From the NCBI GenBank assembly GCA_964423885.1, contig CAYRGD010000001.1, positions 89,653 through 153,652 of the forward strand: a DNA stretch of 64,000 bases. The letters are read 5' to 3'. The stretch is from an uncultured Candidatus Saccharibacteria bacterium. GTDB taxonomy: Bacteria; Patescibacteriota; UBA1384; JACPKC01. Below, one piece after another: positions 10,732 through 45,220 of the stretch. Within the stretch, counting starts at the first letter, position 1, and every line of letters begins with the position of its first letter. The notes beneath the pieces were generated by a model that was not told the DNA's origin, did not search any database, and saw only the letters and a program-made list of their open reading frames with translations. A program made the translations under genes and the position numbers.

Positions 10732-10744
10732 GCGGTCTCCAGCT

Positions 10745-19049: not shown

Positions 19050-20213
19050 ATGTGGTACAGTCCGGTCATGCACCGGCTTCTGGCAGCGATCTTCGTAGTC
19101 CTCGCGCTCTTGGCTCCGGCCGCGCATGCCGACGAGCCCATCTTCGAGACGCAGGCAGATGATGCTGCAGCGTACGACGAGACGGCGCTCCCTACCCTGC
19201 CGCCCGACGAGTACGCCCGCGCCCGCGTGCTTGAGGTGCTCGACCAGGGCGTACGCGACGGCGGCAGTACCGAACTCCCCTATCAGACGCTCAAGGCCCG
19301 GGTGTTGTCCGGCCCGGCCCGCGGCCAGGAGCTGACCGTGGACAACGGCACGCTTTTTTCGGTGTCCGACGGCCAGCTGCTCCGGCCGGGAGAAACCTTC
19401 GTGCTGGTTACGACGTACGCTGGCGACGGCACACCGCTCTACGCCGCGGGCGACCGGTACCGCCTGCCGCTCCTTGGCTGGTTCGTGGCCGGATTCCTGG
19501 TGCTGGTCGGCGCCGTGGCCCGACGCCGCGGCCTCCTATCGTTCCTGGGGCTCGCCGTGAGTGTCGGGATGCTCGCGCTCTACACCGTGCCGCAGCTGGC
19601 CGCGGGCGCTCCCCCGCTGCCAGTCACTTTGCTGACCGCAGCGGTGATCGTATTGGCTACGCTCTACCTTGCGCACGGGTTTACGCGTGACACGACGCTC
19701 GCGGTGGTAAGCACTGCCGGCACGCTGGTATTGGCAGGAACCATGGCCGCGGGTGCCGTGGCGCTCGCCCACCTGACCGGCGGCGGCACCGAGGATGCCC
19801 TTAGCCTGCAGTTCGGCCAGGCGGGCGTCGACCTCAAGGGCCTGTTCCTGGCCGGCATATTGGTAAGTGTGATCGGCGTGCTCGACGATATCACTACCGG
19901 GCAGACGGCCGTGGTGCGCGAGTTGCGTGCGGCCAATCCCACCCTGGGCCCGGCCGAGCTGTTCCGCCGTGCCTCGCTCGTGGGCCGTGAACATATCGCC
20001 TCGCTCGTGAATACGCTCGCGCTCGCCTACGCCGGCGTCTCGCTGCCGTTGTTCCTGGTGCTCGCGTCGAACCCGCAGCCGCTTTGGCTGGCAATGAATA
20101 GCGAATTCTTTGCCGAAGAGCTTGTCCGGACGCTGGTCGGCAGTGCCGCGTTGGTACTGGCGGTGCCGCTGTCGACCGCGCTCGCCGCCTGGTACGGCCG
20201 CACCGATCAGTAG
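19050..20213 (+). CDS. YibE/F-family integral membrane protein
   Basis: Signal peptide, ~110-aa extracytoplasmic domain, then multi-TM region with a GVLDDITTGQTAVV motif typical of YibE/F. The 3' end overlaps the first SBBP gene by 7 nt (convergent). Confidence 0.7.
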   Translation: MWYSPVMHRLLAAIFVVLALLAPAAHADEPIFETQADDAAAYDETALPTLPPDEYARARVLEVLDQGVRDGGSTELPYQTLKARVLSGPARGQELTVDNGTLFSVSDGQLLRPGETFVLVTTYAGDGTPLYAAGDRYRLPLLGWFVAGFLVLVGAVARRRGLLSFLGLAVSVGMLALYTVPQLAAGAPPLPVTLLTAAVIVLATLYLAHGFTRDTTLAVVSTAGTLVLAGTMAAGAVALAHLTGGGTEDALSLQFGQAGVDLKGLFLAGILVSVIGVLDDITTGQTAVVRELRAANPTLGPAELFRRASLVGREHIASLVNTLALAYAGVSLPLFLVLASNPQPLWLAMNSEFFAEELVRTLVGSAALVLAVPLSTALAAWYGRTDQ

Positions 20214-22816
20214 TGGGCGGTCACGTTGTAGGTGATCGTCGTGGCGTAGGCGCCGGCTGTGGTGTCCGGGCTCATGTTGGCGATGTAGCTCACAGTGTAC
20301 GTGGTCAGGCTGCTCACGCCCGGCGCTTGGGCGATGCTGTCGCCACCGACCGCGAACTTGAACTGGTTGGCAGTCTGGTACCCGCTCATCGCGGCGCCCG
20401 TTCCCCCGCTCGGGGCCGCACCGAAGTCGGCGGCGGTGTGCGACCCGGCCGCTGTGTTGGCCACAAGGTTGAAGCCGAACTGCTTGCTGCCGAGCATACT
20501 CGTTGCTTGGCTGGCCATCGCCGTAATCGTGTTGCCGCCATTCGTGAGCGTGGTCGTGGGCAGGTAACTTATCACGTAGCCGCCTGCGCCGTTGGTGCCG
20601 GCCGTTATCGTGTGGGTGCAGGCTTTGGTCTCGCTCGCCGACAGCACGCCCAGGCCGCAGCTCGCGGCGTCCACGGTAAAGTCGAAGCTGACGTTGATGA
20701 TCGTCTCGACCTCACCGGTGACGGTCACGGAATCTTCGGTGAGTTGCGCGACGAACGCGTCGGTGCTGGCAGCCTTGGTTCCTTGGAGCGGTACGGCGGT
20801 CGGCAGGTCGACCGACCCGGTTCCGCCGGTGACATACGCGTTGCCGGCAAGGCTGACTGCAAGCCCGAACCCTTGGTCGGTCCCGCCTCCTCCGAGGTAT
20901 GTCGAGTACTCGAACGCCGAACCGGCTGCGCTCACCTTCGTGACAAAGACATCCTGCGCGCCGCCGTTACTTGCCTGAAACGGCAAGACCGTTGGGAAGT
21001 TGGTAGAAAACGTTTCGCCCGCCACGTAGGCGTTCTCGTCCGCATCGAGCGCGATTGCGTACGCCGTCTCGCCGGCACTTCCTCCCAGATAGGTCGAATA
21101 CGTCAATGCGGATCCTGCAGCGTTGAACTTGGCGACGAACGCGTCGGAGCCACCCCCGTTGCCTGCCTGGATCGGCGCCGCGGTCGGGAAATCAGTGGAA
21201 GACGTATACCCGGTGACGTATATGTTCTTGTCGGTGTCCAACGTAATGGCCGTGGCATGGTCGGCCGCGCTGCCACCCAGATATGTGGCGTACGTGAGCG
21301 CCGTTCCGGTACTGTTGATCTTTGCCATGACCGCGTCGGTACCGCCTGCGTTCGCCGCCTGGTACGGCGTTGCCGTGGGAAAATCCGTCGACAGCGTGTC
21401 GCCCACGATGTAGGCGTTACCGATGTCGTCGACAGTGATGCCGTTGATCGTACTGCCGTCCGACGAGCTGCCGCCAAGGTATGTGCCATAGTCGAGCGAT
21501 GCTGCCCAGGGCGATAGCTTCGCGATGAACATGTCACTCGGGCCGGATAATGCCGCTTGGATTGGCGACGCGGTGGGGAGATCCGTCGACGTTGTCTGGC
21601 CTACGATATAGATACTCCCCTGCGGGTTGAGCGCCATCCCTTGGTAGCTCACGTTATCCGACCCGTTCCCGCCGAAATAACTGGAAAATTGCAGGCCCGA
21701 GCCGTCGTAATTGAGCTGGGTGACGAACACGTCGCCTCCGCCCCCGCCAAAGCTGCTCTGGTACGGTGACTGGACCGGAAAATCGGTCGAGGTGGTAAAG
21801 CCGGCCAGATAGATGCCGCCGTACAGATCGAGCCGGATCGCCCTTCCGTAGTCATTGTTGCTGCCGCCAAGATATGTCGCGTAGACCAACGCGGATCCCT
21901 CCCGATTGAGCTTGACGACGAACGCGTCGGTGTTCCCGGCATTGGAGCCTTGGGCCGGTGCGACGGTCGCGAAGTCCGTCGACTGGGTCTGGCCCACGAT
22001 GTAGGCGTTGCCGTTGACATCGAGCGTAATCGCATTGCCCTGGTCGATCCCGTTCCCGCCCAGATACGTGGCATATACCAGCGCCGGGTCGATAACCAGC
22101 GGTTTCGCCGGGTCGTACGTATCAGCCACGGCGACCGTGACAGTGCCGTCGTTCAGTTCGAAGCTGCTCGGGATGGTGTGTTTCTCGTGCTCGCCGGTTT
22201 GGTACGTGACCGGGGCATTCAGGGTCAGGGTATCGTCGCCGGCCTTGAGGATGAGGTTCCCGTTGCCATCAAGTGACAGATCGTCTTGCCCGGTGAAGCC
22301 GAAGGCGATTTGTTTGTAATTCGCACCGGGACTGACGATGAAGTCGTGTTCCAGCTGTGAGTTCGTGCCGTAGTAGGCGAGATCGATACCAGGATAGACA
22401 TCCTTGGCCAGCAGCTTGCCGTAGTTCGGGACATCCGACTGCCATTTCGACTGGTCGTTCCCGAGAAAGTAGTTCGTCTTCGATTGGAGTTCGTCGGTAC
22501 CGGCGAATTGCTGTTCCGCAGCGCCGGTGAGTGACATCGTCACCTGCTTCCCGCCCACACTGGTCGTGGTGCCCGTACTGGAAAACGCCGTCACGGCCTG
22601 GCCGTGGTGGACAAGGAAGTCTACCGATTCGTCCGCCTGACCTACGTTCGGTTCGAAGGCGAGCGGCAGTGTCGCGTAGGCGGCGTGCAGCGCGTCGGCG
22701 TCAGGTGTCGTGGATTGCGTCGCCGTACCGGGAACGAGCTGTAGTCGCAGCAGTACCAGCATCACGACAAGCGTGGCTGTGAGCATGCCGGTGCGACGGT
22801 GATCGTAGCGGGCCAT
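20207..22816 (-). CDS. secreted SBBP (beta-propeller) repeat protein, paralog 1
   Basis: SD AAGGAGGGGA. Signal peptide MARYDHRRTGMLTATLVVMLVLL. Conserved N-domain LAFEPNVGQADESVDFLVHHGQAVTAF...GIDLAYYGTNSQLEHDF. ~10 repeats of Y(S/A)TYLGG...G(I/L)A(V/L)D..GN.Y..G.T.S.DFPT. Conserved C-domain ending ...TTITYNVTAHY. Confidence 0.8.
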   Translation of the reverse strand: MARYDHRRTGMLTATLVVMLVLLRLQLVPGTATQSTTPDADALHAAYATLPLAFEPNVGQADESVDFLVHHGQAVTAFSSTGTTTSVGGKQVTMSLTGAAEQQFAGTDELQSKTNYFLGNDQSKWQSDVPNYGKLLAKDVYPGIDLAYYGTNSQLEHDFIVSPGANYKQIAFGFTGQDDLSLDGNGNLILKAGDDTLTLNAPVTYQTGEHEKHTIPSSFELNDGTVTVAVADTYDPAKPLVIDPALVYATYLGGNGIDQGNAITLDVNGNAYIVGQTQSTDFATVAPAQGSNAGNTDAFVVKLNREGSALVYATYLGGSNNDYGRAIRLDLYGGIYLAGFTTSTDFPVQSPYQSSFGGGGGDVFVTQLNYDGSGLQFSSYFGGNGSDNVSYQGMALNPQGSIYIVGQTTSTDLPTASPIQAALSGPSDMFIAKLSPWAASLDYGTYLGGSSSDGSTINGITVDDIGNAYIVGDTLSTDFPTATPYQAANAGGTDAVMAKINSTGTALTYATYLGGSAADHATAITLDTDKNIYVTGYTSSTDFPTAAPIQAGNGGGSDAFVAKFNAAGSALTYSTYLGGSAGETAYAIALDADENAYVAGETFSTNFPTVLPFQASNGGAQDVFVTKVSAAGSAFEYSTYLGGGGTDQGFGLAVSLAGNAYVTGGTGSVDLPTAVPLQGTKAASTDAFVAQLTEDSVTVTGEVETIINVSFDFTVDAASCGLGVLSASETKACTHTITAGTNGAGGYVISYLPTTTLTNGGNTITAMASQATSMLGSKQFGFNLVANTAAGSHTAADFGAAPSGGTGAAMSGYQTANQFKFAVGGDSIAQAPGVSSLTTYTVSYIANMSPDTTAGAYATTITYNVTAHY

Positions 22817-22892
22817 TCCCCTCCTTGCTTGCAACCACTATGCGGGAGCTTCCGCGCCCTGTCCAGGCCGTTTGCAGCGTTCCTGGTGCGCG

Positions 22893-25514
22893 TTAATAGC
22901 TGGCTGTGATCACGTACGTGACCGGCGTGCTGTAGGTGCCCGCCTCGGTCGAGACGCCGATATTGCCGATGAAGCTCGCGGTAAAGGTTGTGGTGTCGCT
23001 CGGGCCGGTTGCCTCGGCAACCGTGTCGCCCCCGACCAGGAACTTGAACTGGTCCGCGGTGCCGTAGTCGGCGGCAGCCGTGCCGCTCCCGCCGCTTGGG
23101 TCGGCGCCGAAGTCGGTAGCCGTGTTCGATCCGGCAGCGGTGTTCGCTACCAGGTTCATGCCGAACTGCTCGGTGCCTGGCGTGCTGTCTGACTGGCTCG
23201 CCATCGCGTCGATCGTGTTGCCGCCGCTCGTCAAGGTCGCGGTCGGTACGTAACTCACCGCATAGCCGCTGACCGAGTTGCTGCCTGCCTCCATGGTGTG
23301 CGTGCAGGAATTGGTTTGGCTGATCGAAAAGGTACCTAGGTCGCAGGTGAGCGGGCTGACGTCGAACGACAGGAGCGGCTGCATCATGCCGTGGACGACC
23401 GTGTCGTGTTCGGTATAGCCCAAGAGGATCGCATCGGTGCCGCCATGGGAGGCGCTATCCCAGCCACCGTAACCATAAAAGGGATCCGATGTCGTGTAGC
23501 CCGTAACGTACGCGTTGCCGTCGAGGCTTACCGCTACGGCCGACCCGCTATCGTCCCCGGCGTTGTAGGAAAAGGCGGCCGTGAGCAGCTGCGAGTACGC
23601 GTCGGTCGCAAACCAGGTACCGTAGGGCGTCAGTTTCGTGAGGAAGAGATCCGTGCCACCGGAATTGACGCTGTACGACGTCCAGTTTGTCGAATCGGTG
23701 CTGCCGGTGACGTAGGCGCAGCTGCCGGGATAGCCGCTATCCCATGCGCACCCGTCGGGGGCGACCGCAATGCCGTTCGGTAGGTCTCTGCCGTTTCCGC
23801 CCAGGTACGTCGAGTACGCCAAGTAGGATCCGCTGGCGTCCAGCTTGACGACGACCGCATCGCTCGTGCCACCGCCGTAGTCGGGCTGTTCGGCCGAAGC
23901 CATCGGGAAGTCGGTCGAGTCGGTGCCTGCGGTGATATACGCGTTGCCGTCGGTGTCGATTGCCAAGTCGCCGCCATTGACCCCGTCGTCCCCGCTCCCG
24001 CCCAGGTAGGTGGAATAGGCCAATGACTGGCCGTCGGCCGCGAGCTTCGAGATGAACAGGTCGCCCGTGCCGCCGGCGGAGCTGCCCTGGTACGGTGACT
24101 CGGTCGGGTAATCGGCCGATGTCGTCGTGCCGCCCAAGTAGACGTTGCCGTCGGCGTCGAGGCCCATGCTCGGGGCGAACGTCTTGTCATCGCCTGATCC
24201 GCCCAGGTACGTGGAATACGTGAGCGACTGGCCGTCGGGCTCGAACCGGGTAATGAAGATGTCGGCACCGCCCGCGTTGTCCGGCTGGTAGGGCGATTCG
24301 ACCGGGAAGTCGGTCGAGCCCGCAATGCCGGCAACTACGAACGACCCGTCGGCGGCAGCGGCGATGTTCCGGCCTTGGTCGACGAGGCTGCCACCGAGAT
24401 AGGTCGCGTACAGGATCGTCGACAGGTCGGTGTCGAGCTTCATAGCGAACGCATTGGTGATACCGGCCAGGCTTCCCTGGTAGGCGTCTTGGACGGGAAA
24501 GTCAGTCGAGTCGGTCTGCCCCGTGATATAGACGTTGCCGTCGGGGTCGAGCGCGAGCGAGTTGATCCCGTCGTCGTCACCGTCGCCGCCGATGTACGTG
24601 GCTGCGATAAGGTCGCTGGTCGGAAAGTCGATGCCGATCGGATCGAACTTGACGATAAACCCGTCGGCGTCTCCTGCCAGACTGCCGCTCGGCCAGCCAT
24701 AGGCCAGGTCGCTCGACGCCGTGTTGCCGGCCATATAGATGTTACCGTGCTTGTCGACGGCGATCGCGTTCCCGATATCGTCCCCGCTCCCGCCCAGCGT
24801 ACTTGCGAAGATGAATGCCGGATCGATGACAAGCGGTTTCGTGGGATCGTAGGCATCGCCCACGGTGACCGTCACGGTATCGCCGTCGAGTTCGAAGCGG
24901 CTCGGCACCGTGTGGTTCGTGTGGCCGCTGCCTTGGTACGACACCGGTGCCTTGAGCGTCAGCGTCTGGCCGCTGGCGGTCATGACAAGGTTGCCGCTGT
25001 CATCCAGGGCCAGGCCGTCGTGTCCGCTGACCGAGAGCGCGATCTGCCGGTAGTCGGCACCGGGTGCCACGACAAAGTCGTGTTCGAGCGACGAACCCGT
25101 GCCGTAGTAGGTCAGGTCGATGCCGGGATAGACGCTGGCGGCGGTGATCCGGCCGAAGTTCGGGATACCCGTCCGCCACTTAGCCCGGTCGTTACCCACC
25201 AGGTAGTTGGTGACACTCCGGCGCTGTTCGGTGCCCGAAAACGCTGCCGGCTCGGCACCGATGAGCGACACGGTCACGCCCTGGTTGCCAAGGGCCGTCG
25301 TGGTGCCGCTGGCTGTGACGTACGTGACCGTGCTGCCGTGGTGGGTTACGAACTGGACGCCATCGGGTGCCTGGCCTTGGTTCGGCTCGAAGGCGACCGG
25401 ACTTTGGGTACGTACCGCAGCCGGCGTGCCACCGCCTACGTCGAACGTCGGCCGTGCCGATGCGGCAAGCAGGCCGAGGCTAAGGACGAGCAGGAGGGCG
25501 AGTCGTCGGTTCAT
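22893..25514 (-). CDS. secreted SBBP repeat protein, paralog 2 (most divergent)
   Basis: SD AAGGAG. Signal peptide MNRRLALLLVLSLGLLAASA. Same N- and C-domains (...GTYSTPVTYVITASY). The central repeats are more irregular. Confidence 0.8.
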   Translation of the reverse strand: MNRRLALLLVLSLGLLAASARPTFDVGGGTPAAVRTQSPVAFEPNQGQAPDGVQFVTHHGSTVTYVTASGTTTALGNQGVTVSLIGAEPAAFSGTEQRRSVTNYLVGNDRAKWRTGIPNFGRITAASVYPGIDLTYYGTGSSLEHDFVVAPGADYRQIALSVSGHDGLALDDSGNLVMTASGQTLTLKAPVSYQGSGHTNHTVPSRFELDGDTVTVTVGDAYDPTKPLVIDPAFIFASTLGGSGDDIGNAIAVDKHGNIYMAGNTASSDLAYGWPSGSLAGDADGFIVKFDPIGIDFPTSDLIAATYIGGDGDDDGINSLALDPDGNVYITGQTDSTDFPVQDAYQGSLAGITNAFAMKLDTDLSTILYATYLGGSLVDQGRNIAAAADGSFVVAGIAGSTDFPVESPYQPDNAGGADIFITRFEPDGQSLTYSTYLGGSGDDKTFAPSMGLDADGNVYLGGTTTSADYPTESPYQGSSAGGTGDLFISKLAADGQSLAYSTYLGGSGDDGVNGGDLAIDTDGNAYITAGTDSTDFPMASAEQPDYGGGTSDAVVVKLDASGSYLAYSTYLGGNGRDLPNGIAVAPDGCAWDSGYPGSCAYVTGSTDSTNWTSYSVNSGGTDLFLTKLTPYGTWFATDAYSQLLTAAFSYNAGDDSGSAVAVSLDGNAYVTGYTTSDPFYGYGGWDSASHGGTDAILLGYTEHDTVVHGMMQPLLSFDVSPLTCDLGTFSISQTNSCTHTMEAGSNSVSGYAVSYVPTATLTSGGNTIDAMASQSDSTPGTEQFGMNLVANTAAGSNTATDFGADPSGGSGTAAADYGTADQFKFLVGGDTVAEATGPSDTTTFTASFIGNIGVSTEAGTYSTPVTYVITASY

Positions 25515-25523
25515 GGTGCTCCT

Positions 25524-28157: not shown

Positions 28158-28170
28158 CCCTCCCCCTCCG

Positions 28171-30750: not shown

Positions 30751-30766
30751 ATGTCGTCTCCCCTGC

Positions 30767-33352: not shown

Positions 33353-33363
33353 GGGATCCTCGC

Positions 33364-35991
33364 TTAGTAGTTCACGACGATGGTGTACGTGATCGGCGTG
33401 CTGTACGCGCCCGCCTCGGTGACCGCCGTGATGTTGGCGATGTACGACACGGTGTACGTGGTGGGCTCGGACGCCCCGGTGGTGTGGGCGAGATCCGCCC
33501 CAGCTACGGTGAACTTGAACTGGTTGGCGGTCTGGTACCCGCTCAAGACCGCGCCCGATCCCCCGCTTGGGCCCGCCCCGAAGTTGCTCGTGGTATGCGA
33601 CCCGGCGGCAGTGTTGGCCACCAGGTTCATGCCGAACTGCTCGCTGCCGACTGTGCTGCCGGTTTGGCTCGCCATCGCGTCGATCGTACTGCCACCGTTC
33701 GTGAGCGTGCCAGTGGCTGTGTGGCTCACGACGTAGCCGCCCCCAGCGTTGCTCGCCGCGCTCATGGTGTGGGTGCACGCTACGGTGCCGTTCGGCGAAA
33801 AGTGCCCTAGGTCGCAGAGCGTCGAGCCCAAGGCGAACGCCAGGATCGGGTCGGCAACGCCGTCGACCGTCAGCGATTGCTGGTCGGGATCGTAGGGCAG
33901 CTCGGACAACTTGACCAAGAAGCTGTCGGTACTGCCGCCGTACGTTCCCTGGAACGGCAGCAGGGTCGGGAAGTTCGACGACGCGGTGTGGCCAACGATG
34001 TGCGCGTTTCCGCTACCGTCGAGCGACACGTCGGTTGCGAGATCGTTTCCACTGCCTCCCAAGAAGGTAGAGTAGATCAGCGCCGAGCCGGCCGGATCAA
34101 GTTCGGTAATGAACGCGTCCCCGCCCCCGGCATTGCTTGCTTGGTAGGGTGATCCTGCGGTCGGAAAGTCGGATGATTCCGTAAAGCCGACAACGTATGC
34201 GTTCCCCGAGGCACCGATGGCGACGTCGACGCCCGAGTCGAGCGCGCTCCCGCCCAGGTACGTCGAGTAGACGAGCGCGGTACCGGACGCATTCACTTTG
34301 GCGACGAACGCGTCCCTGGTGCCGCCGCCATAGGTGTCCTGGAATGCCGCTTCGGTCGGGAAATCGGCGGAGGCTGTCCAGCCGGAGACATAGGCCTCGC
34401 CGGTGTTCGCGACCTTGATGCGGATGCCGTCGTCGTTTCCGCTTCCGCCGAGGTATGTCGAGTAGACGAGCGCCGTGCCCGACGGGTTCAACTTCGCAAT
34501 GACGACATCAGCGTCGCCAGCGCTACTTCCCTGGATCGGCGAGGCAGTCGGAAAATCGGTCGACTGGGTGTAACCGGTGATGTACGCACTGCCCGACGCG
34601 TCGACGTCGATGTCGTATCCATGCTCATACACGCTCCCGCCGAGGTACGTCGAGTAGACGAGCGCCGTGCCGGACGGGTTGAGTTTCGTGACAAACATAT
34701 CGCCGAAGCTATTCAAACTTCCCTGGATCGGTGACGCGGTCGGAAAGTCCGTCGACTGGCTGTCGCCGGTCACGTAGGCATTGCCAGCGCCGTCGACCGC
34801 GATGCCGTCGGGCAGGTCGTAGTTGCTCCCACCCAAATACGTGGAATATACGAGCGACGAGCCGGACGGGTCGAGCTTGGTCACGAAGCCGGTGCCAATG
34901 CTGCCTGGGTTCGGCTTGGCGCCTTGGAATGCGGATTCAGTCGGAAAGTCGCTCGAGTTGGTCGCGCCGGTGATATATACGTTACCGGACGCATCCACCG
35001 CGAACTTCCGGGATTCCTCGTTCTCGCTCCCGCCGAGGTACGTCGCGTAGATGAGTGCGGTACCGGCGGCGTTCAACTTGGCCACGAACGCATCCTGGCC
35101 GCCGCTCTTGCTTCCCTGGTACGGCGACCCTGCGGTCGGGAAATCGGTCGAGGTAGTATTCCCGTGGATATACAGGTTGCCGGACGAATCGACCACGACG
35201 CCATGCGAACGGTCTTCGCCGCTCCCACCCAGGTAGGTCGAGTAGACCAAGGTTGGGTCGATAACCAGTGGTTTCGCCGGGTCGTACGTATCCGCCACGG
35301 CGACCGTAACGACGCCGTCGTGCAGTTCAAAGTTACTCGGGATCGTGTGCTTCGAATTGGTGTCGATCTGGTACGTGACCGGGGCATTGAGCGTCAGGGT
35401 ATCGCCGCCCGCTTTCAAAACGAGGTTGCCGTCATCGTCCAAGGCCAGGTCGTCCTGCCCGGTAAAGCCGAAGGCGATCTGCCGGTAATCCACGCCGGGG
35501 GCCACAATGAAGTCGTGTTCCAACTGGGAATTCGTGCCGTAGTAGGCCAGGTCGATGCCGGGATAGACGTTGTTCGCCACCAGCTTGCCGTAGTTGGGAA
35601 TATTGCGTTGCCATTGGGATTGGTCGTTGCCGATAAAGTAATTGGTGTTCGATGCGAGTTCGTCGGTACCGGCAAAGTCCTGTGCCGAGGCGCCGGTCAA
35701 CGTCATCGCGATCTGTTTCCCGCCCACGCTCGTCGTGGTGCCAGTGCTGGAAAACGCCGTGACCGCTTGGCCGTGGTGTACCAGGAAGTCCACGGAGTCG
35801 TCCATCTGGCCGAGGTTCGGTTCGAACGCGAGCGGGAGATCGGCCAGTCCGGCGCGGCTCGTTGCTGCCTGCTCCGTGGGCACTGTCTGTCGCTCGGCGG
35901 CGATACGCAGGCCCAGGCAGGGCAGCGCGATAAGAAGCGCGAGCGCGGCGCGGCGGGTAGCGGTGTGGGTGCGGAACGTGCGTGCGGCCAT
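33364..35991 (-). CDS. secreted SBBP repeat protein, paralog 6
   Basis: SD GGAGGGA. Signal peptide MAARTFRTHTATRRAALALLIALPCLGL. Same architecture. C-terminus ...YSTPITYTIVVNY. Confidence 0.8.
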   Translation of the reverse strand: MAARTFRTHTATRRAALALLIALPCLGLRIAAERQTVPTEQAATSRAGLADLPLAFEPNLGQMDDSVDFLVHHGQAVTAFSSTGTTTSVGGKQIAMTLTGASAQDFAGTDELASNTNYFIGNDQSQWQRNIPNYGKLVANNVYPGIDLAYYGTNSQLEHDFIVAPGVDYRQIAFGFTGQDDLALDDDGNLVLKAGGDTLTLNAPVTYQIDTNSKHTIPSNFELHDGVVTVAVADTYDPAKPLVIDPTLVYSTYLGGSGEDRSHGVVVDSSGNLYIHGNTTSTDFPTAGSPYQGSKSGGQDAFVAKLNAAGTALIYATYLGGSENEESRKFAVDASGNVYITGATNSSDFPTESAFQGAKPNPGSIGTGFVTKLDPSGSSLVYSTYLGGSNYDLPDGIAVDGAGNAYVTGDSQSTDFPTASPIQGSLNSFGDMFVTKLNPSGTALVYSTYLGGSVYEHGYDIDVDASGSAYITGYTQSTDFPTASPIQGSSAGDADVVIAKLNPSGTALVYSTYLGGSGNDDGIRIKVANTGEAYVSGWTASADFPTEAAFQDTYGGGTRDAFVAKVNASGTALVYSTYLGGSALDSGVDVAIGASGNAYVVGFTESSDFPTAGSPYQASNAGGGDAFITELDPAGSALIYSTFLGGSGNDLATDVSLDGSGNAHIVGHTASSNFPTLLPFQGTYGGSTDSFLVKLSELPYDPDQQSLTVDGVADPILAFALGSTLCDLGHFSPNGTVACTHTMSAASNAGGGYVVSHTATGTLTNGGSTIDAMASQTGSTVGSEQFGMNLVANTAAGSHTTSNFGAGPSGGSGAVLSGYQTANQFKFTVAGADLAHTTGASEPTTYTVSYIANITAVTEAGAYSTPITYTIVVNY

Positions 35992-36001
35992 ATCCCTCCG
36001 G

Positions 36002-38614
36002 TTAATAGCTGGCGACGATCGCGTACGTGACCGGCGTACTGTAGGCGCCGGCTTCGGTCGTGTAGCCGATATTCGCGATGAACGACACGGTGTAGACCGT
36101 TGGGTTCGACGGTGCGGTCGTTGCTGCGATATCGGCCCCGCTCACGTCGAACTTGAACTGGTCGGTAGTCTGGTACCCGCTCAAGACCGTGCCCGATCCC
36201 CCGCTTGGGCCCGCGCCGAAGTCGCTGGCCGTATGCGACCCGGCGGTGGTGTTCGCGACCAGGTTCATGCCGAACTGCTCGCTGCCCACGGTGCTGCCGG
36301 CTTGGCTGGCCATCGCGTCGATGGTGTACGGGCTGCTCGTGAGCGTGGTTGTCGGGATATAACTCACCACGTAGCCGTCGTCGGCATTGCTGGCTGCGCT
36401 CATGGTGTGGGTGCACGCCATGGTTTGCGTGGGCGAGAAGTGACCCAAGCTGCAGGTGGCCGAACCGAGCGAGAAGCTCAGGGTTGGTTGCGTGCTGCCG
36501 GTGACGACGAACGACAGGTCGGACAGCTGGGCGACGAACGCGTCACCCCCGCCCCCGCCGAACGTCTGGTACAGGCTCGAGGTGGGTAGGTCGGTCGAGG
36601 TGGTGAGGCCGGTGAAGTACGGCTGGCTGTTCGGCCCGATGTCCACGCCGAGCGCGTAGTCGGTGCCGGTGCCGCCGAAGTAGGTGCTGTAGAGCACGGT
36701 GCCAGTGTCGTTCACCTTGGCGACCAACACATCCGACGATCCCGACAACGCGTTCTGGTACGGCAGAATGGTCGGCAGATCGACGGAATCGGTATAGCCG
36801 ACCACATACGCATCGCCAGATGCCGTGACACCGATGCCGGTGCCTTCGTCCTCGCCGCCTCCGCCCAGGTACGTGGAATAGAATAGGCCGGTGCCGTCGG
36901 TGTCCATTGCCGTAACGAAGACGTCGTGCGTGCCGGCGAAGAACGGTTGAAAGGCGCTTTCCAGCGGGAAATCGGTCGAGCTCGTAAAGCCGGTCAGGTA
37001 GATGCTGCCGCCGCTGTCGATCGCGATGCCGCGGCCGACATCCTCGCCGTCCCCACCCAGGTAGGTGAGAAAGTTCGATGACCCGCCGGGATTGAACTTG
37101 GCCACGAACGCGTCACTGGTGCCGCCGCCGTACGCACCCTGGTAGGCGTTGTTAAGCGGCAGGTCGTTCGAGCTGGTGTAGCCGATCACGTAGGCGCTGC
37201 CAGCCGGACTGACCGCCAGATCGTACACGGAATCGCCGAGGCCGCCTTGGTTGTCGCTCCCGCCCATGTAGGTGGAATAGACCAAGGCGGTACCGGCAGC
37301 GTTCAACTCATAGAGATAGGCGTCGTACGTCCCGTTATTCGTGGACTGCCAGGCGTTCACCGTCGGGAAATCGGTCGAGCTCGTATAGCCCGCGACGTAC
37401 ATATTGTTGCTGCCGTCGATCGCGATCATGCGCACCTTGTTGTCTTCGCTTCCGCCCATGTAGGTGGCGTAGAGCAGGTTTTCGCCATCGGCGTCGAGCT
37501 TAGCGACGAAGTTATCGTTTATCGTGCCGGCTTTGGTGCCTTGGTACGGCGATACGGTCGGGAAGTCGGTCGACTGGGTGTCGCCCGCCACGTAGGCGTT
37601 CCCGCTGCTGTCGACCGCGATGCCGAGCGCGTAGTCTTCGTCGGATCCGCCCAGATAGGTTGAGTAGACGGCGAAGGTGCCCGAAGGGTCGATCTTGGTG
37701 ACGAACGCGTCCTTGCTTCCTCCGGCGAACGCGTCTTGGTAAGGCGACGAGGGGAAGTAGATCATCGGGAAATCAGCCGACGACGTTTCCCCAGTCACGT
37801 AGGCGTTGCCGCTGCTGTCGACTACGACTTTGCGGCCGAAGTCGGTGCCGGATCCCCCAAGGTAGGTCGAGTAGACCAAGGTCGGGTCGATCACCACCGC
37901 TTGGGTCGGATCGTACTCGCCGAGGCTCACGGTAACCGTGTTGTCCGTAACCTCGAACCGGCTGGCGACGGTGTGCTTGGCGGTATCGTCGCCCTGGTAC
38001 GCGACCGGTGCGTTCAGGCGGAGCTCGCTGCCCCCTGTGTGCAGGATAAGGCCGCCGCGGTCGTCGGGCGTGAGCGTATCCTGGCCTTCGAGTGAAAACG
38101 CGATCCGCGTATAGTCGGCGCCGGGTGCCACGATAAAGTCGTGCTCGAGCGTATCGCCTGCACCGTAGAAGGCCAGGTCGATACCGGGGTAGACGTTCCG
38201 CGACACGATGCGCCCGAACGTTTCGATGCCGGTCTGCCATGCGGCCGGGTCGTTGCCCTTGAAATAGTTGGCGACGCCCGGCAGCGTGCCGGCACCTTCG
38301 AACGCGGCCGCATCCGCACCGTCGAGCCGCATCGAAACCGCGCCGTCGGGCGTCACCGTCGTTGCGCCCGTGGCGTCGAAGTACGTGGTCGCCTGGCCGT
38401 GCCGCACCAGGTATTGGACGCTGTCAGGCGCTTGGCCCCGGTTCGGTTCGAAGGCGAGCCGCAGGTGATCGAGGCTTGGGGTGGCCGTGGCGTGTGCCGG
38501 TGCGACCGCCGTCGGCTGTAGCGCAGGGGCAAGGTCGTGCGCGATGAGCGCGACAAGCACGAGCAAGGCCGGCAACGTTGCGGCTCTGGGCAGTGGGGCG
38601 TGTCGTGTGTGCAT
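36002..38614 (-). CDS. secreted SBBP repeat protein, paralog 7
   Basis: Signal peptide MHTRHAPLPRAATLPALLVLVALIA. Divergent N-domain (LAFEPNRGQAPDSVQYLVRHG). C-terminus ...YSTPVTYAIVASY. Confidence 0.78.
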   Translation of the reverse strand: MHTRHAPLPRAATLPALLVLVALIAHDLAPALQPTAVAPAHATATPSLDHLRLAFEPNRGQAPDSVQYLVRHGQATTYFDATGATTVTPDGAVSMRLDGADAAAFEGAGTLPGVANYFKGNDPAAWQTGIETFGRIVSRNVYPGIDLAFYGAGDTLEHDFIVAPGADYTRIAFSLEGQDTLTPDDRGGLILHTGGSELRLNAPVAYQGDDTAKHTVASRFEVTDNTVTVSLGEYDPTQAVVIDPTLVYSTYLGGSGTDFGRKVVVDSSGNAYVTGETSSADFPMIYFPSSPYQDAFAGGSKDAFVTKIDPSGTFAVYSTYLGGSDEDYALGIAVDSSGNAYVAGDTQSTDFPTVSPYQGTKAGTINDNFVAKLDADGENLLYATYMGGSEDNKVRMIAIDGSNNMYVAGYTSSTDFPTVNAWQSTNNGTYDAYLYELNAAGTALVYSTYMGGSDNQGGLGDSVYDLAVSPAGSAYVIGYTSSNDLPLNNAYQGAYGGGTSDAFVAKFNPGGSSNFLTYLGGDGEDVGRGIAIDSGGSIYLTGFTSSTDFPLESAFQPFFAGTHDVFVTAMDTDGTGLFYSTYLGGGGEDEGTGIGVTASGDAYVVGYTDSVDLPTILPYQNALSGSSDVLVAKVNDTGTVLYSTYFGGTGTDYALGVDIGPNSQPYFTGLTTSTDLPTSSLYQTFGGGGGDAFVAQLSDLSFVVTGSTQPTLSFSLGSATCSLGHFSPTQTMACTHTMSAASNADDGYVVSYIPTTTLTSSPYTIDAMASQAGSTVGSEQFGMNLVANTTAGSHTASDFGAGPSGGSGTVLSGYQTTDQFKFDVSGADIAATTAPSNPTVYTVSFIANIGYTTEAGAYSTPVTYAIVASY

Positions 38615-38623
38615 GCAATCCGC

Positions 38624-41278
38624 CTAGTAGTTGACGCTGATCGTGTACGTGACCGGGGTGCTGTAGGTGCCGGCCTCGGTCAGGTAGTCGACGTTGGCGA
38701 TGTAGCTCACGGTATACACGGTGGTGTCGCTGGCGCTTCCTGCGCTCGCGATATCCCCGCCGCCGACGGCGAACTTGAACTCATTGGCCGTATCGTATCC
38801 CGACAGCGCCGCGCCGAACCCGCCGCTCGGATTGGCGCCGAAGTTGCTGGCGGTATGGGCGGCCGTAGTGTTGGCTACCAGGTTGAAGCCGAACTGTTCG
38901 GTGGTCGGTGTGCTGGTATCCTGGCTGGCCATGGCCGTGATCGTGTTGCCGCCGCTCGTGAGCGTCGTGGTGGGAGTGTAGGCAATGGTGTAGCCGCCGC
39001 TGGTGTTTACTGCTGCGGTCATGGTGTGGGTGCAGAACTTGGTCTGGGTCGGCGAGAAGGAGCCGATATTGCACACGGTGGAACCGACCGAGAACGAGAA
39101 GTTGAGCACGGGAGTAACATTCACGAGCAGGTTGTGGTCGGCCTGGCTGGTTGCATCCGTCGGCCCGTCGCCAAGGCGGAACGCGAACACGTCGTAGCCG
39201 CCATTCAGTGACGATTGGTAGGGCGGTGTGCCGGCAATCGGGAAGTCGTTGGAATCGGTGCCGCCGACCACGTAGGGATTCGCGTTGCCGTCGAGCGCGA
39301 CGCCGCCGGCTCCGTCATCGCCACCTCCGCCTACATACGTCGAGTATGCAAGGCCGCTCCCGCCGCCCGTGAACTTGGTAATGAACGCGTCCTGGCCGCC
39401 GCCGTAGCCCTGCAGCGCATCTGCGACCGGGAAGTCGCTTGATGTGGTATAGCCCGTGACGAAGACGTTGTCGGTATTCGCCGGGTCGACCGCGACGCCG
39501 AGCGCGACATCGTCGCCATTGCCACCCAGGTAGGTCGAGGTGACGATGTAGCCGTCCCAATCGAACCGTGTCAGGAACGCGTCCCAGCCGTCGTCGCTGT
39601 ATTGGGGTTGGTATGCGTTTTGGGTCGGAAAGTCGTACCACTCGGTTTGGCCGGTGACGTAAAAGTCGCCGGTATTCCCGTCCATAATGTCTTTGCTCAA
39701 GGCGATGCTTCGGGGGATGTCGTCTCCGTCGGCACCCAGATAGGTCGAGAAGTCGATCCCCTGGAGCTCGTCGTAGAGGCGTGCTACGAACGCGTCATGC
39801 GTCCAGCCGCCATAGCTGGGCTGGGACGCGTTGACGATCGGGAAGTCGGTTTGCGTGTCCGTGAACCCGGTAATGAATACGTGGCCGCCCCAATCAGCGA
39901 CTGCGACTGCCGTGATCCGGTCGTCGCCACTGCCGCCGAAGTAGGTCGATTGGTACAGCGTACCGTCACCGCCGAACTTGGCCACGAACCCGTCGTTATT
40001 GTCGACCCGAGCATCTTGTATAACGCCCACGGTCACGGGGAAGTCGTCGGAGTTGGTGTAGCCGGCAATGACGATGTCTCCGGTACTCGATCGGACTGAT
40101 ATCCCCTCGCCGTGGTCGTCGCCACTGCCGCCGAAGTAGGTCGAGATATCGTGCCAGCCGCCGTCGGGCGTCAGTTTCATGAAGAACGCGTCGGTGCCGC
40201 CGCTAGGGGTGGATTGGTACTCGTTCGAGAGCGGGAGGTCGTCGGAATCGGTGGTACCGACCACGTACGCGTAGCCGTCGTTATCGATCGCCAGGCCTTC
40301 GTTCCCGGCGATGTCCTCACCGTTCCCGCCGACGTAGGTCGAGTAGATGAGGCTGCTGCCTTCGGTGTCGAACTTGCTCACGAAGACGTCGGTGTTGCCG
40401 TGGTAGTTGGGGTCGAACCCGTTGGGCTGCCAGGGAAAGTCGCCGTCCGTCGTGCCGCTCACGTACGCGTAGCCGGCGCTGTCGACGGCGATGTTGTAGC
40501 CGTGGTCGTCGGTCCAGTCGCCCAGGTAGGTCGAATAGTAGAACGACGGGTCGATGACAAGGGGCTGGCTCCGATCGTAGTCGCCGACCGCGACCGTGAC
40601 GGTATTATTGTTGAGTTCGAACCGCGACGGTACGGTGTGCGTTGCCGCGCCGTTGGTTTGGTACGTGACCGGCGCGTTGACGCGGAACGTATCGCTACCA
40701 GTCGTCAGTACCAGGTTCCCGTCGTTGTCGATCGCCAGCGCGTCCTGTCCGGAGAACGAGAACGCGATCTGCCGGTAGTCGACGCCTGGCGCGACGATAA
40801 AGTCGTGTTCCAGTTGGGAATTCGTGCCGTAGTAGCGTAGGTCGATGCCAGGATAGACGTTGCTGGCGTTTACGCCCGCAAAGTTGGCGACGCCGTGCCG
40901 CCAGGTATCCGGGTCGTTGCCCCGGAGGTAGTTGGTGACCGAGGCGAGTTGGTCGGTGCCCGTGAACGTGGCCGGGGTTGCGCCCAGCAGCCGCATGGCG
41001 ATCTCGCTGCCGCCGAACCGGGTTATGGTGCCGTTGGCATCCACCGCCGTGGCTGCCCGGCCATGGTGCACGATAAACTGGACGTCATCAGGTGCCTGAC
41101 CGACATTCGGTTCGAACGCGAGCGGGAGTGAACCGAACGCCGCTCTGGCCGCTGCTACGTCGCTGCTGCGTGGCGTGGCGTGGTCGGCAGGCCGTGCAGA
41201 CAACGCAAGCGCAGCAACGAGCATGAGCCCGATGCCGGCGAGTACCCGCATCCGTTGCCTGTTGCCACTGCGATCCAC
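38624..41278 (-). CDS. secreted SBBP repeat protein, paralog 8 (first gene of block)
   Basis: Probable GTG start after SD AGGAAGG, giving VDRSGNRQRMRVLAGIGLMLVAALALSA. Divergent repeats rich in Asp/Trp. C-terminus ...YSTPVTYTISVNY. Confidence 0.75.
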   Translation of the reverse strand: MDRSGNRQRMRVLAGIGLMLVAALALSARPADHATPRSSDVAAARAAFGSLPLAFEPNVGQAPDDVQFIVHHGRAATAVDANGTITRFGGSEIAMRLLGATPATFTGTDQLASVTNYLRGNDPDTWRHGVANFAGVNASNVYPGIDLRYYGTNSQLEHDFIVAPGVDYRQIAFSFSGQDALAIDNDGNLVLTTGSDTFRVNAPVTYQTNGAATHTVPSRFELNNNTVTVAVGDYDRSQPLVIDPSFYYSTYLGDWTDDHGYNIAVDSAGYAYVSGTTDGDFPWQPNGFDPNYHGNTDVFVSKFDTEGSSLIYSTYVGGNGEDIAGNEGLAIDNDGYAYVVGTTDSDDLPLSNEYQSTPSGGTDAFFMKLTPDGGWHDISTYFGGSGDDHGEGISVRSSTGDIVIAGYTNSDDFPVTVGVIQDARVDNNDGFVAKFGGDGTLYQSTYFGGSGDDRITAVAVADWGGHVFITGFTDTQTDFPIVNASQPSYGGWTHDAFVARLYDELQGIDFSTYLGADGDDIPRSIALSKDIMDGNTGDFYVTGQTEWYDFPTQNAYQPQYSDDGWDAFLTRFDWDGYIVTSTYLGGNGDDVALGVAVDPANTDNVFVTGYTTSSDFPVADALQGYGGGQDAFITKFTGGGSGLAYSTYVGGGGDDGAGGVALDGNANPYVVGGTDSNDFPIAGTPPYQSSLNGGYDVFAFRLGDGPTDATSQADHNLLVNVTPVLNFSFSVGSTVCNIGSFSPTQTKFCTHTMTAAVNTSGGYTIAYTPTTTLTSGGNTITAMASQDTSTPTTEQFGFNLVANTTAAHTASNFGANPSGGFGAALSGYDTANEFKFAVGGGDIASAGSASDTTVYTVSYIANVDYLTEAGTYSTPVTYTISVNY

Positions 41279-41330: not shown

Positions 41331-41669
41331 CTACCGGTTATCCCCACTCCCGCCGATCACCTGCCGCTGCTTGCGGTCGCGCAGCTTGGCGATGTTACGG
41401 CCGCCCACGTCCGACAAGGTGTAGCCGAGTTCGTCGGCCACACGGGCTAGGTACCAGAAGCAATCACCCAGCTCGTCGGCCAGCTCGGCCCGTTTGTCGT
41501 CGGTAAGGACGCCGCCCTCATCGCGGAACACCTTTTTGACCTTGTTCACCAACTCGCCCACCTCGCCGGCCAGGCCGAGCACGGGATACAAGTAGCGGCT
41601 ACCCTCGATCGCCGGGTACGCGGCCGTTTCGCGGGTGGTTACCTGGTAGTCGTCGAGCGCTGTTGCCAT
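41331..41669 (-). CDS. mazG: MazG-like nucleoside triphosphate pyrophosphohydrolase
   Basis: 112 aa: LYPVLGLAGEVGELVNKVKK...LADELGDCFWYLARVADELG is a classic MazG EExxE/D motif. SD AGGAGG. Co-oriented with the SBBP block and immediately upstream of it. Confidence 0.8.
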   Translation of the reverse strand: MATALDDYQVTTRETAAYPAIEGSRYLYPVLGLAGEVGELVNKVKKVFRDEGGVLTDDKRAELADELGDCFWYLARVADELGYTLSDVGGRNIAKLRDRKQRQVIGGSGDNR

Positions 41670-41720: not shown

Positions 41721-41765
41721 TCGGCGTATGCCGGGCAAAAATATGGAAGGGAACATTAAAAAGAG

Positions 41766-43774: not shown

Positions 43775-43785
43775 CAGCCGGCTTC

Positions 43786-45142: not shown

Positions 45143-45220
45143 ACGACCTCCTGGTTACTGGTACGTTGCCTGTATCCTACCTGGTTTCAAGCGTGATCAG
45201 GTGTGGATATCTTGCGGCGG

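Follow-up and report, generated by a model that had tools for sequence, protein, structure and literature searches.

Pam pilins are built from a signal peptide, an N-terminal domain, a single linker beta-strand and a truncated Ig-like C-terminal domain (bioRxiv 10.64898/2026.03.03.709456). They polymerize by donor-strand exchange, as seen by cryo-EM, and assembly involves membrane-anchored PapD-like chaperones; the N-terminal domain of PamA/B supplies much of the inter-subunit interface, and the tip subunit is modelled as an acceptor domain only, without a linker strand. Host recognition by these pili is described as unknown by the authors (bioRxiv 10.64898/2026.03.03.709456). The hallmarks of the chaperone-usher pili are an incomplete Ig fold with a donor strand, a periplasmic PapD-like chaperone and an outer-membrane usher. 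Firmicutes WxL clusters encode small WxL, large WxL and WxLIP (DUF916-DUF3324-TM) proteins, and WxL proteins are described as peptidoglycan-bound monomers, not filaments (PMC10599100). DUF7948-SBBP proteins occur in Acidobacteriota, Nitrospirota, Planctomycetota and other groups, and further SBBP comparators are the LipL53-type lipoproteins and the propeller of CylK (PDB 7FH6, 7RON), an intracellular biosynthetic enzyme.

In the window, the 64-kb stretch of DNA analysed here, eight co-oriented ORFs on the minus strand at 20207–41278 encode paralogues of 859–884 aa. As the initial annotation had described, they are closely spaced, with intergenic gaps, in transcription order, of 9, 10, 11, 16, 13, 9 and 76 bp. 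The genes are as follows.

38624..41278, minus strand: G8, transcribed first; 884 aa with GTG 41278 as start (ORF and Shine-Dalgarno sequence); Pfam DUF7948 2.5e-51 and SBBP 3.3e-22; NF058581 109.9 bits
36002..38614, minus strand: G7, 870 aa; Pfam; NF058581 114.7 bits; full AlphaFold model
33364..35991, minus strand: G6, 875 aa; architecture as G8 (Pfam, Shine-Dalgarno); NF058581 111.6 bits
30767..33352, minus strand: G5, 861 aa from ATG 33352 with a Shine-Dalgarno sequence; Pfam; NF058581 120.0 bits
28171..30750, minus strand: G4, 859 aa; architecture as G8 (Pfam, Shine-Dalgarno); NF058581 106.5 bits
25524..28157, minus strand: G3, 877 aa; architecture as G8 (Pfam, Shine-Dalgarno); NF058581 105.7 bits
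22893..25514, minus strand: G2, 873 aa; architecture as G8 (Pfam, Shine-Dalgarno); NF058581 127.4 bits
20207..22816, minus strand: G1, 869 aa, final gene of the array; Pfam, Shine-Dalgarno; NF058581 119.3 bits

Start codons were picked by Shine-Dalgarno context. An AGGA/GGAG-type sequence lies upstream of seven of the genes and none was detected before G7; the initial annotation had assigned a strong one to every copy. The start of G8 is ambiguous: GTG 41278 has a Shine-Dalgarno sequence, whereas the database protein P0244 begins at ATG 41251 (875 aa). The 1003-aa ORF with a listed start at 33778 extends G5 upstream by read-through and overlaps G6.

Co-transcription of the array is plausible from its sequence, because the coding strand contains no terminator-like sites. 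The only longer gap (76 bp) precedes G1, and a promoter-like match there (22865–22837) is no better than expected by chance. The array sits between mazG and yibE/F, and its GC content (63.4%) matches that of the flanks (62.9%). The reported position downstream of mazG is correct here (41331–41668, co-oriented, 52 bp upstream), but this adjacency is not kept in relatives. The initial annotation had also found no secretion genes. The window does encode the general Sec accessory genes secD/secF (8534–10773) and two VirD4-like ATPases; Pam assembly genes, however, are absent from it (NCBIfam on 40 flanking ORFs; tblastn with the chaperone).

All eight proteins share one order of parts: signal peptide, DUF7948, SBBP propeller, linker and Pam pilin C-terminal domain. 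In G7, for which the whole AlphaFold model has a pLDDT of 82, these map as follows.

38525..38614, minus strand: residues 1–30, Sec-type signal-peptide-like; basic n-region, then hydrophobic helix
37880..38452, minus strand: residues 55–245, DUF7948 (PF25778), all-beta; 3.8e-50, profile 1–214 of 214
36521..37879, minus strand: residues 246–698, seven-bladed SBBP beta-propeller, putative binding head; PF06739 in six stretches
36482..36520, minus strand: residues 699–711 (DLSFVVTGSTQPT), linker and putative donor strand; aligns with canonical Pam pilin linkers
36005..36481, minus strand: segment following the linker

The N-termini, previously read as signal peptides, are signal-peptide-like in all eight copies by a simple hydrophobicity heuristic (Kyte-Doolittle): 2–4 K/R precede a 14-residue h-region of mean hydropathy 2.35–2.77. 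In G7 there are 2 K/R ahead of an h-region of mean 2.63, and residues 13–28 are modelled as a helix. The conserved N-terminal domain noted earlier corresponds to DUF7948, which is matched in every copy at E about 1e-50 (168–176 bits; Pfam cut-off 27) and is modelled in G7 entirely as strands (pLDDT ~80). Likewise, the predicted SBBP repeats (PF06739) score above the gathering threshold throughout (E 1e-22 to 1e-58; 78.6–194.6 bits; cut-off 20.5). Their number had been put at 8–10, whereas the G7 model contains 28 strands forming seven four-stranded blades of ~64 aa each (pLDDT >90), and the array DNA has a 192-nt period. The propeller is the least conserved folded part across the paralogues (37–56% identity, against 46–81% for the N-terminal and 41–72% for the C-terminal part). 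It is most divergent in G2, which also carries an additional Cys pair at 589/599.

The conserved C-terminal domain, originally estimated at ~165 aa, comprises ~160 aa in all eight proteins and is, by its sequence, a member of the Pam pilin family. The model NF058581 (CPR_Pam_pilin_C; cut-off 55 bits) matches the extreme C-terminus of each copy at 105.7–127.4 bits, over about positions 2–148 of 148, with a short deletion within the domain of G4. A ninth paralogue outside the window, P0041, also passes. Canonical pam operons at about 65 Saccharibacteria loci encode the same domain alongside PamT and PamR, and across 1152 representative clusters it is always C-terminal, mostly in pilin-sized proteins. 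Its 265 genomic relatives are nearly all Saccharibacteria or Patescibacteria MAGs; the few short contigs labelled as other taxa are probably mis-binned. Other CPR proteins join other passengers to the same domain (a YVTN/lactonase propeller plus Ig, TIG).

The region ahead of this domain is also pilin-like. Both the linker and the strand that opens the C-terminal domain can be aligned with canonical Pam pilins of 340–420 aa (for example 'GVVVSATVNPTLTF' at locus L017), and the linker pattern h-x-V-T/S-G is kept in 39 homologues (all paralogues and 31 others). PamT has a Pro-rich stretch where the pilins have the linker. In G7 the linker has a pLDDT <50 and is disordered, and therefore is not folded back onto its own domain in the monomer model.

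The proteins thus resemble PamA, PamB and PamE of Candidatus Mycosynbacter amalyticus in having a signal peptide, a C-terminal domain of truncated Ig-like type in which a Cys pair is conserved, and a single putative linker strand directly ahead of it, as well as in their restriction to CPR/Saccharibacteria, the tandem arrangement of paralogous genes and the presence in the organism of a TM-anchored PapD-like chaperone. They differ in that the nine-strand N-terminal domain (~200–350 aa) is replaced by DUF7948 and an SBBP propeller (~650 aa), and are therefore classed as a variant rather than as PamA/B/E orthologues. In addition, they occupy their own eight-gene array outside a pam operon, with PamT and PamR not seen nearby.

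As no assembly gene lies in the window, the functional link to Pam pili rests on domain homology and genome co-occurrence. P0129, a PamC/D-like chaperone of 334 aa, combines a signal peptide with a TM helix at the C-terminus; it shares 72% identity with the chaperone adjoining the canonical pilin in a syntenic relative. P0278 is a 340-aa canonical pilin (97 bits on NF058581). The two are adjacent on an 8-kb Logan contig, and the same sequencing run contains a 100% match to G7. A 292,834-bp contig is recorded for both proteins, and likewise for the ninth paralogue and the database proteins identical to G7 (P0001), G6 (P0021) and G3 (P0060). The identical contig size and the shared sequencing run would put P0129 and P0278 on the same contig as the window. 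Neither PamT nor PamR turned up in the data reachable for the source organism.

CPR cells of this ultrasmall kind live on a host bacterium. We consider it rather probable that the products of the eight genes are 'adhesin-pilins' belonging to the CPR-specific Pam pilus, exported by Sec, joined by donor-strand exchange and bearing varied host-binding propellers; from the sequences we infer their export, chaperoning, polymerization, filament position, adhesion and ligand. Each protein would be exported by Sec via its N-terminal signal peptide, and its C-terminal ~160 residues would form the truncated Ig-like pilin domain, preceded by a short beta-strand linker that appears homologous to the strand which canonical Pam pilins donate to a neighbour. 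The ~650-residue DUF7948 and seven-bladed SBBP module stands where a nine-strand beta-sandwich is usual. After export, the open pilin domain would be held by a membrane-anchored chaperone of the PamC/D type whose gene lies elsewhere in the organism, and donor-strand exchange would then link the subunit to the 340-aa canonical pilin, to other paralogues or to both. The propeller heads would be displayed along a surface filament or at its end. Eight diverged propellers, together with the ninth paralogue elsewhere, could offer a range of binding specificities towards the host bacterium's surface. The 70-kDa module standing in place of the PamA/B N-terminal domain may prevent the formation of homopolymers.

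Such a bulky head might impede polymerization altogether, and the proteins could instead be displayed as monomers, as has been suggested for the large WxL proteins of Firmicutes, the C-terminal domain docking non-covalently on a TM-anchored chaperone-like counterpart of WxLIP and/or the cell wall. The published WxL cluster has an equal parts list: a domain-only protein, large proteins with binding domains, and a protein made up of two Ig domains and a C-terminal TM helix, of which a beta-hairpin is predicted to enter the WxL domain (PMC10599100). P0129 has a weak, sub-threshold match to PF06030 (WxLIP_PGBD; 17.9 bits, cut-off 27.3, E 0.0033), and PF06030 or PF06280 is precomputed for several of its homologues. 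The C-terminal domain itself, however, has no Pfam match at E <= 10, WxL included, and ten other large proteins that bear it have no WxL match at E <= 0.001. Trp-x-Leu motifs are lacking, with no Trp at the equivalent positions; in our reading of the alignment, Phe/Tyr-x-Leu/Ile appear to take comparable end positions. Moreover, the family that is matched polymerizes by donor-strand exchange, and conservation of the donor-strand-equivalent linker across all paralogues and the 31 homologues would be needless for a mere tether. Monomeric display is thus considered unlikely.

A second alternative retains the Pam pilus but confines the propellers to its tip, each paralogue entering a filament once, at the distal end of a shaft of the canonical 340-aa pilin, and the eight genes serving as alternative tips. 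This would parallel PapG and FimH, in which an N-terminal binding module (putative in the present proteins) is followed by an incomplete-Ig pilin domain completed by the strand of the next subunit. Structurally, PapGII and FimH provide, with their pilin domains, some of the best matches, but sequence similarity is undetectable and there is no outer membrane or usher. In contrast to chaperone-usher pili, the chaperone here is anchored in the membrane, a propeller replaces the lectin jelly-roll as head, and the putative donor strand is interposed between two domains instead of forming the N-terminus of the subunit that follows. The organism has the canonical pilin for such a shaft. There is also no match to PamT in the scanned loci of the closest relatives (L017, L032, L080), and another protein might therefore cap the filament. 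The published tip subunit, however, has no linker strand, whereas these proteins, unlike PamT, keep the pilin-like linker; nine fusion genes to one canonical pilin so far would also be an odd ratio. An exclusively terminal location therefore appears improbable.

It is more doubtful still that the proteins have no connection with a pilus and act, in secreted or cell-associated form, as binding propellers in the generic sense of the initial annotation or as propeller enzymes like CylK; the C-terminal domain would then be merely a stabilizing Ig-like module. The nearest solved propeller is that of CylK, a Friedel-Crafts alkylating enzyme (phmmer E 8e-11; best Foldseek match of the G7 propeller, E 2.5e-23), but the likeness is confined to the propeller scaffold, at 22–24% identity, and the different N-terminal domain of CylK is absent. 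DUF7948-SBBP modules are widespread outside the CPR with other C-termini, and the N-terminal three quarters of the present proteins are 38–46% identical to them. The C-terminal domains of the proteins compared are of Ig-like, FG-GAP, TIG or other kinds, never the Pam pilin domain; all copies here pass the curated Pam pilin model at about twice its cut-off, and the consistent C-terminal position of the domain in mostly pilin-sized proteins likewise argues against a stabilizing module.

A MAG assembly artefact, with the repeat collapsed or over-expanded, is scarcely credible for all that the source is a MAG and the locus repetitive, since the protein sequences of the copies differ by 19–63% in every domain (whole proteins 40–81% identical) and their DNA (60–93% identical) has no long identical tracts, which excludes collapse or duplication, and since an independent Logan assembly recovers G7 with both its neighbours and identical database proteins exist for G2, G3, G6, G7 and G8. 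The array, for which the initial annotation had named this as a possible refutation, is thus genuine.

The history of the paralogues is mixed. G8 clusters in the tree with P0082 (CAYZPG) and P0115 (JAYRIO), and G2 with P0066 of the CAYZPG MAG; G7 is closer to P0003, P0005 and P0006 (58–63% identical) than to its own paralogues. G8, G7, G5 and G2 appear to be old lineages, three of them grouping with proteins of other MAGs, and a lineage-specific burst accounts for G1, G3, G4 and G6. The fusion is limited to a small Saccharibacteria-related clade. Tandem organization had been thought unusual, but it is the norm in this CPR subfamily, with typically three to five genes per short contig in related MAGs. 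The real peculiarity is the expansion from two to eight copies at the syntenic site: the locus is syntenic with that of an 'uncultured Candidatus Saccharibacteria' MAG (GCA_964480605.1), and two syntenic relatives have two copies each.

The Pam system itself is known, and the propeller–pilin fusion is a variant of it that is counted as new, since neither such fusions nor any propeller or adhesin subunits are mentioned in the Pam paper (bioRxiv 10.64898/2026.03.03.709456). The Pam pilin domain would provide the display and assembly route that had seemed to be missing from the locus. The role first proposed, that of a surface or adhesin repertoire by which the cell attaches to a partner, is retained as the most plausible one; to judge from their sequences, the genes probably encode varied adhesive pilus subunits for gripping the host cell.

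Eight long ORFs lie on the minus strand of the window in region 20207-41347. Start codons, picked from the Shine-Dalgarno (SD) context, define the following genes, of which G8 is the first in transcription order.

20207-22816, minus strand: G1, ORF with SD-based start
22893-25514, minus strand: G2, ORF with SD-based start
25524-28157, minus strand: G3, ORF with SD-based start
28171-30750, minus strand: G4, ORF with SD-based start
30767-33352, minus strand: G5, ORF with SD-based start; the listed 1003-aa ORF is an upstream read-through
33364-35991, minus strand: G6, ORF with SD-based start
36002-38614, minus strand: G7, ORF with SD-based start
38624-41278, minus strand: G8; an alternative start, ATG 41251, is possible and is used in the database gene call P0244

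The products are 859-884 aa long; the intergenic gap before G1 measures 76 bp and the others 9-16 bp. By Pfam, each of the eight has both DUF7948 (PF25778, E about 1e-50) and SBBP repeats (PF06739); together with the ORFs, this bears out the co-oriented SBBP array described in the initial annotation. Between paralogues, amino acid identity spans 46-81% for the N-terminal part, 37-56% for the propeller and 41-72% for the C-terminal part; DNA identity is 60-93%, long identical tracts are absent, and G7 was recovered with both its neighbours in an independent Logan assembly. The divergence of the paralogues, the DNA comparison and the Logan copy exclude a collapsed or duplicated repeat, and the array is therefore real. 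A horizontal-transfer island is ruled out by GC content (array 63.4% versus flanks 62.9%). The window as a whole, at 63% GC, is high relative to the Saccharibacteria-related loci retrieved; values for relatives sharing the fusion genes lie between 52 and 64%, and those for three canonical pam loci of Saccharibacteria (L015, L016 and L046) between 44 and 46%.

Promoter-like matches within the array were no better than chance, and no terminator-like sites were found on its coding strand. Given the latter and the short gaps, co-transcription from mazG or from 41278 is plausible. Recent gene conversion was rejected as the origin of the paralogue similarity, since long identical tracts are absent and identity is raised only locally, in the DUF7948-coding stretches of four genes.

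22049-22669, minus strand: DUF7948-coding stretch of G1, raised DNA identity
27372-27992, minus strand: DUF7948-coding stretch of G3, raised DNA identity
29984-30603, minus strand: DUF7948-coding stretch of G4, raised DNA identity
35218-35838, minus strand: DUF7948-coding stretch of G6, raised DNA identity

Here identity reaches 78-86% over 300 nt and up to 93% over 74 nt; the propeller parts of the same genes are less alike (~60-70% DNA identity). This pattern suggests stronger constraint on, or partial homogenization of, the 5' ends.

An AlphaFold model of G7 (pLDDT 82 overall, >90 in the propeller) contains 28 strands, arranged as seven blades of four strands and ~64 aa each, in agreement with a 192-nt period in the DNA; the ~8-10 repeats counted initially should be amended accordingly. 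The propeller is the least conserved folded part: its majority fraction is 0.60, that of the C-terminal domain 0.71 and that of DUF7948 0.76. The last ~160 residues match no Pfam family, even at E <= 10. Of Pfam and NCBIfam, only the latter recognized this domain, through NF058581 (CPR_Pam_pilin_C, 'Pam pilus system pilin subunit'), which scores 105.7-127.4 bits in all eight proteins against a cut-off of 55 bits. This family stems from a 2026 preprint (bioRxiv 10.64898/2026.03.03.709456) in which PamA and PamB were identified by cryo-EM as two pilins in filaments of the CPR bacterium Ca. Mycosynbacter amalyticus. In both, a signal peptide is followed by a beta-sandwich N-terminal domain of nine strands, one linker beta-strand and a C-terminal domain with a truncated Ig-like fold; this last domain takes up the linker of the adjacent subunit by donor-strand exchange. 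From structure predictions, the authors inferred that PamC and PamD are membrane-anchored, PapD/FimC-like chaperones, that PamT is a tip protein consisting of the C-terminal domain only, and that PamR is a membrane-anchored terminator.

Judged by this family match, the C-terminal domain of G1-G8 belongs to the Pam pilus system, and the proteins are thereby linked to a pilus already described in CPR. The general idea first proposed for the array, a set of secreted adhesins used in attachment, is a reasonable reading; what had been missed is that the C-terminal domain is that of a Pam pilin. The Pam system itself is already known, and the novelty lies in propeller-headed subunits in an expanded array. 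The Pam paper makes no mention of propellers, SBBP, DUF domains or adhesins, and its authors describe how the pili contact the host as unresolved (bioRxiv 10.64898/2026.03.03.709456). Our literature search for SBBP or DUF7948 in CPR found nothing relevant.

When the linker and C-terminal domain of G7 were modelled separately (pLDDT 75), the best PDB match in Foldseek was the PapD-bound pilin domain of the PapGII adhesin (probability 0.99, E 9e-3), followed by CS20, FimF/G/A and TasA fibres. The scores are moderate, and the matches are overwhelmingly donor-strand-completed fibre subunits; for this predicted structure, the list agrees with the published description of Pam pilins. The domain also holds an invariant Cys pair, reminiscent of the cysteine pairs that PamA and PamB are reported to have. 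Between the final propeller strand and this domain lies the linker, DLSFVVTGSTQPT in G7, whose pattern h-x-V-T/S-G-x-x-x-P is kept across 39 homologues and which aligns with that of canonical 340-420-aa Pam pilins, e.g. 'GVVVSATVNPTLTFTV' in locus L017 of a relative. In the full-length monomer model of G7 it is the sole internal region with pLDDT <50, indicating that it does not fold back onto the C-terminal domain of the same chain. G1-G8 have neither the defining N-terminal domain nor the operon context of PamA, PamB and PamE, and are therefore not filed as their orthologues.

The linker also bears on the structurally attractive alternative that G1-G8, like PapG or FimH, act as adhesins at the tip only. 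However, the published tip subunit lacks a linker, PamT having a Pro-rich stretch at that position, and G1-G8 keep theirs. A second alternative would place the C-terminal domain among Firmicute WxL surface proteins. In its favour, the Pam chaperone found in this organism (P0129) has a sub-threshold match to PF06030 (WxLIP_PGBD/DUF916), and some of its homologues have precomputed PF06030 or PF06280 annotations. Against it, the C-terminal domain has no Pfam WxL match, its own family has been seen to polymerize, and the donor-like linker is conserved; WxL membership of this domain is rejected at sequence level. The chaperone matches and a matching cluster architecture suggest a possible relationship between Pam pili and the WxL clusters of Firmicutes, one that the Pam paper does not mention (bioRxiv 10.64898/2026.03.03.709456). 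Enzymatic or soluble propellers like CylK are an unlikely third alternative: a search of solved structures by G7 sequence, in a set apparently without PamA and PamB (PDB 25PZ and 25QA), returned the CylK propeller only, and the likeness is limited to the propeller scaffold.

The window consists of CPR housekeeping DNA and encodes, among others, L10, Tgt, two VirD4-like ATPases, SecDF, dUTPase, Gmk, a UvrD-like helicase, YibE/F, MazG, DUF4349, PEBP, thioredoxin, class II RNR, NrdR, FtsZ/FtsA and YbeY. It is syntenic with the 'uncultured Candidatus Saccharibacteria' MAG GCA_964480605.1 and with one Logan contig. Several other features were recorded.

2905-5355, plus strand: 816-aa protein, weak match to VirD4/TraD-type coupling-protein ATPases
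5352-8237, plus strand: adjacent 961-aa protein, weak match of the same type
41760-42335, plus strand: ~190-aa ORF beside the array, no Pfam or NCBIfam match
42800-43783, minus strand: DUF4349 protein, kept in the syntenic loci of relatives
44579-45154, minus strand: second ~190-aa ORF beside the array, no Pfam or NCBIfam match
61821-62507, plus strand: 228-aa protein, C-terminus matching NF052397 (aggregation-promoting factor C-terminal-like domain; 75 bits, cut-off 40)

The VirD4/TraD-like pair may be part of the type IV secretion or competence apparatus of Patescibacteria, and the 228-aa protein is another candidate surface or cell-wall protein.

No Pam assembly genes were detected in the window by NCBIfam on 40 flanking ORFs or by tblastn with the chaperone; the silence of NCBIfam on chaperones is uninformative, as it extends to all PamC/D-like chaperones scanned, even one in a canonical pam operon (L040). 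Protein database searches with the chaperone and the pilin of locus L032, from a relative, returned P0129 (334 aa, with signal peptide and TM helix; 72% identity to the query chaperone) and P0278 (340 aa; 55% identity to the query pilin and 97 bits on NF058581). For both, the recorded NCBI contig is 292,834 bp long, and G3, G6 and G7 are recorded on a contig of the same size; the genes of P0129 and P0278 also adjoin on a Logan contig of run SRR12712864, and that run yields G7 at 100%. Their link to the array is drawn from this shared recorded length and the SRR12712864 contigs. The locus is as follows, in the retrieved stretch L080 and, for the second feature, also in L017.

L080 3-2513: compact pam locus of the organism, with chaperone (334 aa, P0129), canonical pilin (340 aa, P0278) and then a 208-aa protein with signal peptide and TM helix
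L080 4534-6984, minus strand, and L017 15333-17765, minus strand: ~810-aa Peptidase_S74 tail-fibre-like protein, with the compact pam locus a few genes away

The Peptidase_S74 protein echoes the 'tail fibre-like protein' central in pamA neighbourhoods (bioRxiv 10.64898/2026.03.03.709456). A ninth full-architecture paralogue, P0041 (865 aa, 48-59% identical to G1-G8), is absent from the window, is recorded on a contig of 292,834 bp and groups by sequence with P0013, P0033 and P0052 of other MAGs.

A genome scan with the C-terminal domain alignment, covering GTDB species representatives other than the source genome, found 265 relatives, almost all in Saccharibacteria/Patescibacteria MAGs. Short contigs with such genes labelled Bdellovibrionales, Gammaproteobacteria or Candidatus Acidoferrum (L020, L042, L073 and L076) are probably mis-binned CPR contigs and not true non-CPR occurrences. 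In about 65 loci the domain lies in canonical pam operons, with a ~250-aa PamT, two to four 350-420-aa pilins, PamR and a conserved ~330-aa protein (signal peptide and C-terminal TM helix), a putative PamC/D-type chaperone. Close relatives with propeller fusions also have a compact chaperone-pilin-chaperone locus, which shares a contig with a two-copy array in L032 and is found in L017 too.

The DUF7948-SBBP module is common outside CPR (Blastocatellia, Nitrospirota, Brocadia and others), in proteins 38-46% identical over ~75% of G7 with different C-termini. Its fusion to the Pam domain was found only in a small clade comprising this organism, the GTDB MAGs JAYRIO01, JBBUCD01 and CAYZPG01, and about 30 proteins of 850-890 aa from metagenomes. 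In these MAGs the fusion genes are tandem, with three to five on each contig of 6-12 kb and over ten in the JAYRIO01 genome, so that tandem organization, at first thought unusual, is the rule. The syntenic site between mazG/fur and yibE/F holds only two copies in two relatives. Neighbour-joining placed G8, G7 and G2 each beside proteins of other MAGs and G5 as sister to the group of G7; G1, G3, G4 and G6 form an organism-specific clade. Tree and copy numbers together indicate that some paralogues of the array are old and differentiated and that others arose by recent expansion at this site.

Searched by profile, 1.84 billion representatives yielded 1152 clusters with the domain, always C-terminal. 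Most are PamT- or pilin-sized; among the top 150, roughly one-sixth are large, at 444-2295 aa. The passengers of these large carriers are DUF7948-SBBP, YVTN/lactonase propeller plus Ig, TIG or none recognizable; examples with passengers other than DUF7948-SBBP include P0253, P0315, P0321, P0372 and the following.

L014 4709-10510: large Pam-domain protein in the MAG 'bacterium isolate ELA587'

Given these varied passengers, the Pam domain looks like a general attachment or display module in CPR.

Regarding mechanism, we propose that G1-G8 are probably adhesive subunits displayed through the Pam machinery. The N-termini are signal-peptide-like by a heuristic, and the proteins would be exported by Sec. 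On the published Pam model, the TM-anchored chaperone present in the organism would then hold the open C-terminal domain. By homology of both elements, the linker strand would enter the groove of the preceding subunit, its own groove taking the linker of the next. The DUF7948-propeller heads would stick out from the filament, or from its end, and may bind ligands of the host envelope, eight or nine diverged heads giving breadth or switching of specificity. A more far-reaching reading, possible though on balance rather unlikely, is that G1-G8 are true polymerizing subunits and build 'bottle-brush' Pam filaments. In that case, a 70-kDa head, drawn from nine or more interchangeable paralogues, would be displayed at every ~5-nm filament step of a polyvalent, combinatorially variable adhesive fibre without a described counterpart among donor-strand pili, and the propeller subunits would be the missing host-recognition component of the Pam system and a determinant of CPR host range. 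As a corollary, Pam and Firmicute WxL/WxLIP clusters would form one ancient monoderm donor-strand display superfamily.

CPR/Patescibacteria are a large, host-attached share of bacterial diversity. Diversified large heads fused to a Pam pilin domain are concrete candidates for the host-recognition step of the Pam system, and the propeller heads are candidate host-range determinants in one Saccharibacteria-related clade. More generally, the Pam C-terminal domain looks like a general module onto which CPR bacteria graft varied passengers.
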